A stretch of 62,958 nucleotides of DNA, filler included, from Porpidia crustulata (Eukaryota), in NCBI GenBank assembly GCA_964255105.1. It is 11 parts of 11 records of this genome, joined end to end, with 100 filler letters (N's around TTAATTAATTAA, not from the genome) between each part and the next. Parts side by side here need not be neighbours in the genome. Positions count along the whole stretch, not along the records: positions 11,496 to 17,133 come from CAXUWE010001750.1; 10 more parts are not named here. One strand, written 5' to 3'. This document shows, piece by piece, positions 5,652-17,781 of this stretch; the stretch's first letter is position 1; every line of letters begins with the position of its first letter. Under the pieces are notes generated by a model. The model saw only the letters and a program-made list of their open reading frames with translations. It was not told the origin of the DNA and did no database searches. Both the position numbers and the translations under genes were made by a program.

Positions 5652-5751
5652 NNNNNNNNNNNNNNNNNNNNNNNNNNNNNNNNNNNNNNNNNNNNTTAAT
5701 TAATTAANNNNNNNNNNNNNNNNNNNNNNNNNNNNNNNNNNNNNNNNNNNN
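5652..5751. other. Artificial 100-bp contig linker (N44-TTAATTAATTAA-N44); same linker at 11396-11495, 17134-17233, 22871-22970, 28605-28704, 34339-34438, 40072-40171, 45798-45897, 51522-51621, 57242-57341
   Basis: Identical linkers carrying stops in all frames. Flanking segments fall in length from 5651 to 5617 bp, as expected for size-sorted contigs. Confidence 0.98.
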
Positions 5752-13873: not shown

Positions 13874-16088
13874 TAAGTCTGGGCCGCTCCCCAGCAACCT
13901 GAGTCGTTCATACACACATAAATGCTCGTAGGAATAGAGCCACTTTGATGGAGATTTTTAGTACGATGAAGTTGTCCCATCGCCCGGCGACCTCCGTGCT
14001 AACTCACCCCCTATTCCTCATGCATAGCTATCCTATCATATCGCTCGGATATGGTCGCTCCAGCAATCTCCTTTGCGACATATGTAAATAGCACATAGCT
14101 GACACACACAGAGATCTTGGGGTACTGCTTTGGGCGTATCCTGTCGCGATCAGCGGCCAATTGTATGGTGTTTTGAGACAATTCTCCCAAAGGCTTTCTC
14201 TTTCGTCTCTCATTCTCTGGCTTCACCTTACTCCCTTTCGCTACACATACAGAACAGTTCTTCTGTTTGTCTTCTAACCTCATCGGCTCATCATGGTTGG
14301 CCGCGCTTGCTTGATGTACTTGCGCATGTAGAGGCCGTTTGAGAATAGCTCTAGAATGAACACTCATAGTGTATGGTCGTTTCGACTGAGCGAACAGTTG
14401 AGCGGCTAGCCTTGTTCGAAAGGCCTTATGGGTCGAATGATTCTATGGCTCACTGAATGACCGTTGAGGTATACAATGGCTGATCTTTTAAGCGTTCACA
14501 ATTGAGATATCCAACAGAAAATGCTATAGCGGATTTCAGTTCTTGACGTATATGCGCTGTGTATTATAATAGGGGCGGAGCTGGTTGACTACTCCTTTGA
14601 AATGGTTGTATATATCGATGAATTGGGGTATTGCTAGTTTCTTAACAGCGTCGTCTCCGAATACGGCTCGAGAGGTACGCGCATTGGTAGCTGTTTTGGT
14701 AGGTCGACGGCGAGGTCTAGTCACTGTAATCTGGCCATCGTCAACAGTAATTATGAATAACATCACATTTTGATTTTTCTAAACGAATTCCAGTACTTGG
14801 CCGTCTTGGCTCAAGCGCCCGTACAATTTGCCCTATTTCAGTTGAGCGTTATGCTCCAATTTCAGGGCAGAAAGGGAGTATCCGACCCTTTTTTCGCCTC
14901 CTTTGATAGCTTCTTCCGCTGCATTGTGGATCCTGAGGTCTCTTTTAGTACCTCTCGGGCGGTTATTTGTGTTCGAACAGTCCCTGCTGCACTGAAGCCC
15001 TCCTCTTTCAATGTAGCTAGTAGTCGGGCTGACGTGGATAGGTTATCTAGCCATATTGTATGGCAGAAGTCCTTTGAGATACCATCTTGACTCAGTAGGT
15101 CTAATACCACCGCTTGTGTCTTCGAGAACCCTTTATCATCCGTTCAGAAATCATCAAGGTCTACCGGCCCTCCGTCGTCGCTTTTGGCATGGTAGGTCAA
15201 GAACATAGCCGTGATTGGCCAGAACCCAGATCTTGAGGCCCTGAGGTATCGGCTTTGAGGGCAAATTGACGGTCTCTTTGGTACGACCCATGAATCGTTG
15301 AATCGTTTCGTCAACGGCTAGGTGGGTCCCTGTATGCCAGTAGTCCTTGATTTTCTTCCGCAAATGCTCGCTCAATGGCTTTAGCTTATCGAATGGAGTC
15401 TGTTGGCCTTGAGGCAAAGGCTTGGAGACATAGAAGAATCTATCGATTTGTTCCCAACGTTCAAGCTGATATGCTGACGAACGATATCATGTATTAGCCC
15501 TTTAGCTGGGTCGGTATTCCAAAAGTCCTTTACTTCTTTTTCTAGATATACACCCATCCAAACGTAAGCAGCAATGTAAGCGCGAAGCTCTTCTTTCATC
15601 CTTAGAGACCATGTTCTCGTGTGAGGCTTGTCGGCTGGAGCTGGGTGTACTTGGGCGTACTCAGTGGTATTGTTGGCGAGGATAGTAAGGGTTTCATCGT
15701 CGAAGAACAGGATAAAGATCTCGTAAGGGTCGTCGGTCATGATGTGAGGAGGGAGATTACTACTCCCATAGGTAGAAGCAATTCGTAATGGCGCATGCTT
15801 TGGGAGGCTCCAAGGCTCTGGAGGGGGGAGTTTTGGATACCTTTGTAACTTGCTGGTCAGCTGGCACGTGATCTAGGTCGTTGGAGACGCGATTTCGTGG
15901 CATGAATAAGGGAATGGGAGCAAAATGGTTGAATATGAGGCTGAGCAGGGCCAAATCTTGGTGGTTTTGCGCCGGGCGATGGGAGAGAACGCAAGCAGTG
16001 CTGTGATTCGAAAGCGAAAGCTCTGTTCCATAGCCGTTTCTACATATTCTACACGGCTGTCAATATGGTGTACATGCGCCCAGACTTA
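13874..16088 (-). mobile_element. Decayed piggyBac-family (DDE_Tnp_1_7-like) DNA transposon with 11-bp TIRs TAAGTCTGGGC
   Basis: TIRs at 13874-13884 and 16078-16088 (inverted). Transposase fragments: PYEIFILFFDDETL, AVDETIQRFMGR...PSKPIPQGLKIWVL, WLDNLSTSARLL...AAGTVR, IDIYNHFKGV, and a Cys-rich C-terminus. Confidence 0.9.
14028..15903 (-). pseudogene. piggyBac-like transposase pseudogene (multiple frameshifts and stops)
   Basis: Split across the ORF fragments 15760-15954, 15381-15740, 15154-15417, 14862-15110, 14536-14766 and 14011-14367. In-frame stops occur at presumed Trp codons (KN*NPL*HFLLD). Confidence 0.88.
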
Positions 16089-16284
16089 ATGGGTGACCCT
16101 TAACCTGATATCCTGAGTAAGATATTCGCCCACGTCCCCTACCCGATATCAAACTGGTCCGCACCTTCACTAAGCCTTTTGCCTGATTCCATAATGATTA
16201 GAATTCAGCAAAAAAAGACTACCGCGATTAGCTCATCCTATTTCGTAGTTGAGGGCACAAAAAACAAAAATAAATAAAAAGTAG

Positions 16285-16297
16285 AAAAAATTAAAAA
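16285..16297 (-). terminator. Pol III oligo(T) terminator of tRNA-Lys
   Basis: TTTTTAATTTTTT begins a few nt 3' of the discriminator base on the minus strand. Confidence 0.8.
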
Positions 16298-16300
16298 TGA

Positions 16301-16488
16301 AGCCGAAGGCGGGGCTCGAACCCGCGACCTTGAGGTTTTCTTTGTTAAGAGCCACACGCTCTACCTACAAGGTGTTAGAGACTACTACGTTCAACCAACT
16401 ATTTCAAGTAGCCTACCGATTGAGCTCTGCCATTCTTATTAGCAGGCTTAGCGGGCAAGCAAGGAATTTCGAGAACTTACACCCCGGC
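16301..16488 (-). tRNA. tRNA-Lys(CTT) with two spliceosomal-type introns (16480-16427, 16416-16365) and a 9-nt canonical anticodon-loop intron
   Basis: Spliced sequence GCCGGGGT|AGCTCAATCG|GTAGAGCGTGTGGCTCTTA[acaaagaaa]ACCTCAAGGTCGCGGGTTCGAGCCCCGCCTTCGGCT folds into a full cloverleaf. Acceptor GCCGGGG/CTTCGGC, D stem GCTC/GAGC, T stem GCGGG/CCCGC with loop TTCGAGC, and one T:T mismatch in the anticodon stem. Confidence 0.93.
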
Positions 16489-16567
16489 TACTCCACTTGA
16501 ATTATCTAAAAACCCTTATTATAATATATATTCTAGTTGCTAGAGATGGCCATTGAGAAAAAAGATA

Positions 16568-16826
16568 CACGCGGTCACAAAATAAATCCATACCGCTAAT
16601 TCCGATCCCCCGCCCACACCATCAAATATACATACTACAGCATCTGTAGAAAACATTAACTAAACGCTACAGAATTGAATGATGCCGATCTTAAAAAACA
16701 AGATTGAAACGGTACGCTATTAAACTACATAGGTTCATGAAAAAAACAGTCTTGAAACAATGATCGAATCTGATTTATTTGATGAGGGTCGAGTTTTGCG
16801 GTATGGATTTATTTTCTGGCCGCGTG
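16568..16826. mobile_element. MITE, family 1 (CACG...CGTG termini, about 30-bp imperfect TIRs)
   Basis: The start cacgcggtcacaaaataaatccataccgc is the inverse of the end gcggtatggatttattttctggccgcgtg. The interior is homologous to 29642-29892 (caagattgaaac...cttgaaacaat...aatctgattt...gtcgagttttgcggta). No TSD is retained in this copy. Confidence 0.82.
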
Positions 16827-16921
16827 CTTGGTTCTTGACATATTCGAGTAGATCGGAGCAGACGTCTCCACCAGGCATTCCCTCGATCCTTAGATAGCGC
16901 GTTGGCATTAAATGAAGGTCC

Positions 16922-17133
16922 TAAGTCTGGGCAAGAGGAGGCCGAGCTTGGGTAGTAGGCCTGACAAAATGTATAAAAAGATCTTGGGCAGCTACATGCA
17001 GGTACAGAGTAGCCAACTTCGGCTCCCTTGTGTTGCCTTATCTGTTATCAAGAGCCGTTACGGGCTCCTCCTTTAATACTCCCTCGTATATTCCTTCGTG
17101 TTCCCCTCTGCTCCCCCCTGCTTCCCCTTGTGC
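16922..17133. mobile_element. Possible end of a second TAAGTCTGGGC-terminated element, cut by the contig end
   Basis: An exact 11-bp copy of the piggyBac-like TIR at 16922-16932, followed by TGCTCCCC-type low-complexity repeats at the contig break. Confidence 0.45.
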
Positions 17134-17781
17134 NNNNNNNNNNNNNNNNNNNNNNNNNNNNNNNNNNNNNNNNNNNNTTAATTAATTAANNNNNNNNNNN
17201 NNNNNNNNNNNNNNNNNNNNNNNNNNNNNNNNNGGCGTGGGGGATTTGTGCCGCTGTGAAGAAGGTGCGGGGATTCTTCGCTGCGCTCGAGAATGACAAC
17301 GAAAAGAGAAGAGCTGGGTGGGTTCATGAAGGGGGGGAACACGGCCTTGGGGTTGGGGGGTGGGGTTAGGAGGTTGCAAACAACCGGACATGATACTCAT
17401 TTCGAACCCTCAAAGTCACGAACTGATTCATTCCAAGCACTTTCACGCTTTTCTATCTATGCTAGAGTACCGACTTTAATTTCAAATTCCACGTTTACAT
17501 CAAATGCCAGTCCAAAAGGACGGAGCGCCTTGTAAATGCCCAGGCTCACAATACTAAATACACGAGCACGCTTGCCTATGATAATGCAGAATGCACGGAC
17601 AACAGCAATGCTGAATCGAAGAGGTGGTATTGTAAAAGCAGAAGCAGGAACAGAAGCAAATGTTGAATTTTTCAAACGCCGGCCCAGGTTTACAAGAGAA
17701 GGGTTTGGTGAGGAGCTTTCGTTGTTGTAGTGAGAAAACGGTAGTAGTTTCCCTACGTAACTGAAGATACGAAAATGGGAT

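Follow-up and report, generated by a model that had tools for sequence, protein, structure and literature searches.

The minus strand of a 62,958-nucleotide (nt) stretch of the Porpidia crustulata genome (assembly GCA_964255105.1; the whole stretch is called the window here) carries, at positions 16488-16301, a lysine transfer RNA gene, tRNA-Lys(CTT), which is interrupted by two GT..AG inserts and a 9-nt canonical tRNA intron. This is probably a working nuclear tRNA-Lys(CUU) gene of a lichen-type ascomycete, with two U2-type spliceosomal introns alongside an endonuclease-type intron at position 37/38. Removal of the two inserts restores a tRNA exactly, and in relatives the exons and most splice signals are conserved while the insert interiors, the flanks and the canonical intron change. 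That related fungi keep the same broken gene suggests a tRNA that would need the spliceosome to mature.

Anatomy of the split gene and its in-silico spliced product

Three exons, all read on the minus strand, make up the gene. Exon 1 (16481-16488, 8 nt) holds tRNA positions 1-8, comprising the 5′ strand of the acceptor stem and U8. It is followed by insert 1 (16427-16480, 54 nt), a spliceosome-type interruption between tRNA positions 8 and 9 that starts with GTAAGT and ends in CAG, with a CTAAT whose A lies 12 nt before the 3′ end. Exon 2 (16417-16426) is a 10-nt micro-exon encoding positions 9-18, the 5′ D-stem and most of the D-loop. Insert 2 (16365-16416, 52 nt), also of spliceosome type, separates G18 from G19; it runs from GTAGGC to TAG and holds a CTAAC whose A lies 10 nt before the 3′ end. 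Its first four bases are identical to those of exon 3. Together with its internal 9-nt intron, exon 3 is a 64-nt piece (16364-16301). The first part (16346-16364) encodes positions 19-37, including the 3′ D-stem, the 5′ anticodon stem and the anticodon CTT, while the second part (16301-16336) encodes positions 38-73 and contains the B box and T-loop at 16322-16312. The canonical intron between them (16337-16345, 9 nt, after position 37) is called as an intron by ARAGORN. Runs of five and six T residues (16285-16297) begin 4 nt past the tRNA 3′ end and resemble a terminator of RNA polymerase III (Pol III). On the other side lies an A/T-rich, TATA-like block (16515-16530), whose last 10 nt, TTATAATAAG (16524-16515), stop 26 nt upstream of exon 1. 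Minus-strand reading and in-silico splicing reproduced every coordinate and sequence string of a preliminary description of this gene.

Splicing was carried out in silico by coordinates and ARAGORN was run on each form. The program calls no gene on the genomic form, none when insert 1 alone is removed and none when insert 2 alone is removed. Once both are removed, it calls tRNA-Lys(ctt) with the 9-nt canonical intron. Apart from one T:T mismatch in the anticodon stem, the resulting cloverleaf is regular, and it shows the U8, A14, G18G19, T-loop and anticodon CTT of a tRNA-Lys. Both the restoration of a cloverleaf by removal of exactly the two GT..AG segments and the difference between genomic and spliced forms had been anticipated in the preliminary description, and both were borne out. 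So was its expectation that standard finders would miss or only partly score such genes: over the whole window ARAGORN reports no tRNA with the intron search on or off, and Rfam gives no match at gathering score.

The in-silico product also has natural counterparts. Its 37-nt 5′ half and 36-nt 3′ half match exactly in at least 12 independent, uninterrupted tRNA-Lys(CTT) loci from metagenomes, in which the halves are parted only by a canonical intron of 10-24 nt. The T:T mismatch is present in these genes as well, and three uninterrupted genes score 48.6-52.4 bits, full-length, on the Rfam family RF00005. The reconstruction is therefore the sequence of an established fungal tRNA, rather than a near-tRNA or a chance resemblance.

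Conservation and splice signals among relatives

Metagenome contigs were scanned with a 23-nt bait from the T-arm, which covers 23 of the 36 nt in the second part of exon 3. The scan returned at least 117 loci with at least 118 matches. ARAGORN places a tRNA call over 108 of the 118 matches listed and makes no call over the remaining 10; 16 of those listed are uninterrupted eukaryote-type tRNA-Lys(CTT) genes. Among the 10 uncalled matches, three are split tRNA-Lys genes (L080, L096 and L034). L080, on a 754-kb contig, contains inserts of 54 and 51 nt and a 9-nt canonical intron that differs from that of the window at three positions (6/9 bases identical). L096 (JAABUZ0100086692.1, 463-1085) has inserts of 54 and 52 nt and has precisely lost the canonical 37/38 intron. 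The distant L034 carries insert 1 only, at 58 nt and with about 45% identity, which is chance level; insert 2 is absent and a 9-nt canonical intron is present. The absence of the canonical intron from L096 and of insert 2 from L034 implies that the three interruptions were gained or lost independently. All four split genes score zero with ARAGORN in their genomic form and yield a tRNA once spliced. The program labels spliced L080 as Leu(caa) and spliced L034 as '???', owing to the placement of the 9-nt intron; the exons of both are those of tRNA-Lys(CTT).

The flanks of L080 and L096 align with the window and these genes are therefore orthologues. Identity to the window is 80% for insert 1, 67-73% for insert 2, 58-61% for the 100 nt upstream and 58-65% for the flanks overall. 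Exon decay in relatives on a par with the flanks had been named in the preliminary description as a sign of a dead copy, and it is not what the orthologous locus presents: none of the 73 exon columns varies among the window, L080 and L096, in comparison with 37 of 106 insert columns (14/54 in insert 1 and 23/52 in insert 2). The contrast holds for the exon columns outside the bait (0/50; Fisher p = 8.9e-8) and for the two micro-exons of 8 and 10 nt (0/18; p = 0.0015). Exon 1 and the second part of exon 3 are identical in L080 and L096, and no column varies in exon 2 (0/10) or in the first part of exon 3 (0/19). Exon 2 is identical in L034 too. The acceptor stem of L034 differs from that of the window by a compensatory change, G4:C69 to C4:G69, and by G5:T68 to G5:C68. 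These pairs span the insert, and the compensatory one implies that exon 1 and the 3′ part must join in one folded RNA. Invariant exons and a compensated stem change together indicate that the tRNA structure is under purifying selection.

Four public runs (X1-X4), with contigs of unknown kind, were aligned to 15900-17133, and the substitutions listed are 40 of the 88 in the alignment. In X1, the likely source of the window, exon 3 is covered by no second contig; this gap in coverage has no bearing on copy number. X2 and X3 come from two related organisms. A 1797-nt contig of X2 covers the entire split gene with both inserts, insert 2 being 3 nt shorter. Of the X2 substitutions listed, 18 lie within the gene. 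Insert 1 accounts for 10 of these and insert 2 for 8, each in a stretch between the donor, branch and acceptor motifs, and none is in exon 1. The two in-gene deletions, of 2 nt and 1 nt, both fall in insert 2 between the signals, and all 30 gap letters of this contig piece are placed outside exons. A 3817-nt contig of X3 likewise covers the whole split gene and both inserts, with insert 2 shorter by 7 nt. Both runs also contain paralogue contigs that match exon 3 only and then run into an uninterrupted 5′ half. In X4, a fourth organism, a 12-kb contig matches exon 3 and is preceded by different, unrelated sequence; this sequence holds CTAAT and ends in TATAG at, or within 1 nt of, the site of insert 2. 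An invariant 22-mer spanning exon 2 had no match in a prokaryote contig collection, as expected.

The signals of the inserts are those of spliceosomal introns. All seven inserts (two each in the window, L080 and L096, and one in L034) are 51-58 nt long and have GT..AG ends. The donors seen are GTAAGT, GTGAGT, GTTAGT and GTAGGC, of which the GTTAGT of L096 departs from strict GTRNGY at position 3. CTAAT or CTAAC lies near the 3′ end in six of the seven (A 10-12 nt from the end, as measured in the window), and in each of the seven the tRNA is restored when the first AG past the branch motif serves as acceptor. In insert 1, GT and AG are fixed across the orthologues, while position 3 of the donor and the last base of the branch motif vary. 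Most donor, branch and acceptor columns are unchanged in the three orthologues while the insert interiors drift.

Introns of the host's protein-coding genes provide a yardstick. A script that sought GT..AG segments bridging two long open frames returned 22 candidate messenger RNA (mRNA) introns in the window, of which the five judged clearest, with both flanking frames long, were used; this is a small sample and the open frames are not curated models. These five are 48-91 nt long and have a GTRNGY donor, a CTRAY branch and a YAG acceptor, and the inserts of 54 and 52 nt fit among them, in agreement with the earlier claim that the inserts match host mRNA introns in length and motif classes. Introner-like or transposon-derived introns would be present as many near-identical copies in one genome. 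A blastn-short search of the seven inserts against the window and the 117 listed loci returned only the orthologous inserts and 12-nt matches at E >=0.3. With GT-AG ends, a branch motif, host-like length, and conserved signals combined with turnover of presence and absence, the inserts would be classed as U2-type introns.

The other seven uncalled matches were considered as split fungal genes and rejected. Four of them (L005, L082, L089 and L109) look like copies of a different tRNA, one with an encoded CCA, that are truncated or have a long intron, and L074 begins at a contig end. In L016 and L105, an orphan 3′ tRNA fragment (T-arm and acceptor strand) lies beside apparent coding DNA, with no 5′ tRNA half within 300-450 nt. 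These fragments are reminiscent of the attachment sites that integrated elements leave behind in bacteria and are unrelated to the fungal gene.

The window itself contains nuclear fungal genes, including Dbf4, isopropylmalate synthase, RPC2 and mitochondrial RNA polymerase. The best matches to the first 500 residues of RPC2, at 70-77% identity and with none closer, are mostly from lichen-forming ascomycetes (Pleopsidium, Hypocenomyce, Lasallia, Umbilicaria, Usnea and Xanthoria). A series of minus-strand open frames (14011-15872), broken by shifts or introns, lies immediately downstream of the tRNA gene. The one frame tested, 15381-15872, matches the piggyBac-type transposase family DDE_Tnp_1_7 (E = 9e-11). 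The interval between these frames and the tRNA gene (15900-16300) is well conserved in X2 and X3, and the X2 orthologue has a 25-nt insertion at 16083 relative to the window and X3. Upstream, from 48 nt before the tRNA gene, about 290 nt (16536-16825) are missing or replaced in X2 and X3 (skips of 290 and 326 nt). Pieces at 16584-16632, 16694-16745 and 16777-16827 recur on other contigs of X1, at depths up to 240, and the segment looks like a repeat-bearing insertion in the lineage of the window. The window also includes 20 blocks of 44 N in pairs (e.g., 5652-5695 and 5708-5751; 17134-17233), spaced about every 5.7 kb and totaling 880 N, which look like masking rather than assembly gaps.

Counter-evidence and alternative explanations

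Several points weigh against a working, spliceosome-dependent tRNA gene. Its support is comparative DNA throughout. A first exon of 8 nt (plus leader) and an internal exon of 10 nt are extreme substrates for the spliceosome, and it would be unusual for it to act on an uncapped Pol III transcript. L034, L080 and L096 were retrieved by the 23-nt bait, and the bait positions are identical in them by construction. Insert 2 of L096 has CTTAC where the others have CTAAC, with TTAAT further upstream. Avoidance of T4 runs was rejected as a signature of Pol III: TTTT occurs in none of the seven inserts, but the shuffle P is 0.13. In X2, 13 of the 53 substitutions at 15900-16535 fall outside the 40 listed, and exon 3 is overlaid by paralogue contigs, so that it may carry changes there. 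Both the orthologue and an uninterrupted paralogue in X3 appear to lack 2 nt at 16317 in the T-loop, which could mean a damaged copy in that organism; a third, low-depth X3 contig equals the window exactly at this place. Finally, the mature sequence is also encoded without interruption in metagenome loci, and in X2 and X3 there are uninterrupted tRNA genes whose 3′ parts are similar. Given such copies, the split one may be redundant.

In a somewhat unlikely alternative, RNA polymerase II (Pol II) would make the precursor, either as a stand-alone non-coding RNA or as the leader of the downstream gene. Splicing would then be co-transcriptional, and RNase P and RNase Z would release the tRNA. This explanation departs from the preferred one in the polymerase only and is included in the probability given to a working gene with two spliceosomal introns. 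Spliceosomal splicing and capped Pol II transcripts normally go together, and the transposase-derived set of open reading frames begins some 430 nt downstream on the strand of the tRNA gene. The same 10-mer, TTATAATAAG, stands 25-26 nt upstream of exon 1 in L080 and L096, with a comparable A/T block upstream in L034. This TATA-like block may be a promoter element, and as such would suit Pol II too. The A-box region is parted from exon 1 by insert 1, which also favors Pol II. However, the B box is undamaged, and exon 2 together with the first 4 nt of insert 2 forms a contiguous A-box-like block; this block would survive because insert 2 begins with the first four bases of exon 3. The T5 and T6 runs, which begin 4 nt past the tRNA, also speak for Pol III, and a run of four or more T lies within 39 nt downstream in all four split genes. 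Such runs occur within 80 nt downstream in 14 of the 16 uninterrupted genes among the matches listed, and in 7 of the 16 a TATA-like block lies between -45 and -30. The flanks of the split genes are thus like those of uninterrupted tRNA-Lys genes, which favors Pol III. The lack of a T4 run in any insert points weakly in the same direction, and U6 offers a precedent for a spliced Pol III transcript in the available sections of a review (PMC5855946). Taken together, these sequence features make Pol III somewhat likelier than Pol II as the source of the precursor.

It is improbable that the locus is kept for a role other than tRNA production, such as the binding of TFIIIC or Pol III or the supply of a regulatory RNA that stays unspliced, or that it is a disabled copy which has not decayed. 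The same mature sequence is encoded by uninterrupted genes elsewhere, and the possible T-loop gap in the X3 orthologue would fit a disabled copy. A binding site accounts for the B box, but not for the invariance of the 8- and 10-nt exons beside variable inserts (0/18 versus 37/106). It also leaves the largely conserved donor, branch and acceptor motifs and the compensatory acceptor-stem change of L034 unaccounted for. Decay is excluded by the 0/50 variable exon columns next to inserts of 67-80% and flanks of 58-65% identity, and gene conversion from uninterrupted copies would wipe out the inserts.

Excision of the inserts by the tRNA endonuclease and ligase, as non-canonical tRNA introns with bulge-helix-bulge (BHB)-like folds of the kind known from Cyanidioschyzon merolae and nucleomorphs, is highly improbable. 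Spliced eukaryotic tRNA genes with several introns, including some in the D arm, do exist according to the available sections of a 2014 review (PMC4090602). A permissive search that allowed asymmetric cuts gave four of four central pairs for insert 2 in both the window and L080 (as did 101 and 66 of 2000 shuffles, respectively). However, this marginal match is lost in L096, where insert 2 reaches three of four central pairs, a level attained by 795 of 2000 shuffles, and it was rejected on account of that inconsistency and of the symmetric test. The preliminary description had singled out junctions forming BHB motifs as the outcome that would count against spliceosomal introns, and at symmetric cut positions all seven inserts have at most two of four central pairs. 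What is conserved is the GT start, a CTAAY 10-12 nt from the end and the AG end, which are spliceosomal signals rather than exon-intron pairing. Moreover, the fungal SEN endonuclease measures from the mature tRNA body, which is unformed until the D arm is joined. Self-splicing introns of group I or group II, which have a conserved catalytic core of hundreds of nucleotides, were rejected because inserts of 51-58 nt are far below that size, and no Rfam intron family matched in the window at gathering score or in L034, L080 and L096 at E <=1.

Proposed maturation and relation to known introns

For a tRNA-Lys(CUU) gene with two spliceosomal introns and one endonuclease-type intron, we infer the following series of steps. 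Transcription would run from just past the conserved TATA-like element to the T-run terminator, more likely by Pol III. The spliceosome would take out both inserts by intron definition, joining the 8-nt first exon, the 10-nt micro-exon and the remainder. The D-arm and the tRNA body could fold only after both removals, upon which the SEN endonuclease and ligase would excise the 9-nt intron. RNase P and RNase Z would trim the ends.

Spliceosomal introns in ribosomal DNA (rDNA) are found especially in lichen-forming ascomycetes. For their occurrence in ascomycete nuclear rDNA, the available sections of PMC6652019 and PMC5855946 cite Bhattacharya et al. (2000). The same portion of the latter, a 2018 review, describes mRNA-type introns in the Pol III gene U6 and lists spliceosomal introns for the U1, U2, U5, U6 and ribosomal RNA (rRNA) genes, with tRNA genes not in that list. 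The rDNA introns share with the present inserts the broad host group, a short GT..AG segment with a branch motif in a structural RNA gene, a host gene of another sort than the normal Pol II mRNA genes, and gain and loss between relatives. They differ in their host RNA, which is a Pol I rRNA. In the present case the interrupted molecule is a tRNA of 73 nt that has exons of 8 and 10 nt and on which a second splicing system, unrelated to the first, would act. Tani and Ohshima (1989, 1991) and Takahashi et al. (1993, 1996) reportedly described mRNA-type introns in U6, U1, U2 and U5 genes of fission yeast and Rhodotorula. The U6 intron is a parallel in that it is spliceosomal and its host is a Pol III gene whose TATA element lies upstream, and it is thought to stem from reverse splicing into an abundant small RNA. 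Small nuclear RNAs (snRNAs) are exposed to reverse splicing because they are located in the spliceosome, unlike tRNAs.

Other tRNA genes with multiple or non-canonical introns are found in Cyanidioschyzon merolae and in the nucleomorphs of cryptophytes and chlorarachniophytes (Soma et al., 2007, 2013; Kawach et al., 2005; PMC4090602). As far as the sections of these sources at hand extend, these genes are likewise interrupted two or three times, in some cases within the D arm, and are missed by standard finders. Their introns are 3-24 nt long or depend on a BHB and are attributed to the tRNA endonuclease, in contrast to the present inserts of 51-58 nt, which carry donor, branch and acceptor signals and lack a BHB. 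The canonical 37/38 intron, removed by SEN and tRNA ligase, corresponds to the 9-nt insert at 16345-16337, where uninterrupted relatives have 10-24 nt; the two other inserts, at 8/9 and 18/19, have a different set of signals. In the portion available, PMC4090602 ascribes non-canonical eukaryotic tRNA introns to the endonuclease and contains no word starting with 'spliceosom'. Together with the corresponding portions of PMC10275265 (2023) and PMC13149111 (2026), it treats tRNA splicing as protein-enzymatic and independent of the spliceosome.

The preliminary description knew of no established spliceosomal introns in tRNA genes, and full-text literature searches likewise found no report of them. 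On the sequence comparisons presented here, the gene most likely extends spliceosomal introns in fungal structural RNA genes to tRNA, for which no earlier description was found. If this is correct, tRNA joins the list of non-coding RNAs with spliceosomal introns, and the gene provides a natural example of a small RNA dependent on two unrelated splicing systems that act in a fixed order. It would also be a natural test bed for the spliceosome on an 8-nt first exon, a 10-nt micro-exon and a probably uncapped Pol III transcript. Intron gain by reverse splicing into abundant structured RNAs would be supported, and tRNA gene counts from tRNAscan, ARAGORN and Rfam would be too low for these fungi. 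More tentatively, the spliceosome may be a routine step of tRNA maturation in a lineage of lichen-forming ascomycetes, with a Pol III precursor that is spliced twice before the endonuclease, RNase P and RNase Z act. Its inserts would then represent a further class of tRNA intron, with an origin by reverse splicing as in fungal rDNA and snRNA genes, and more such genes may lie hidden in these genomes.

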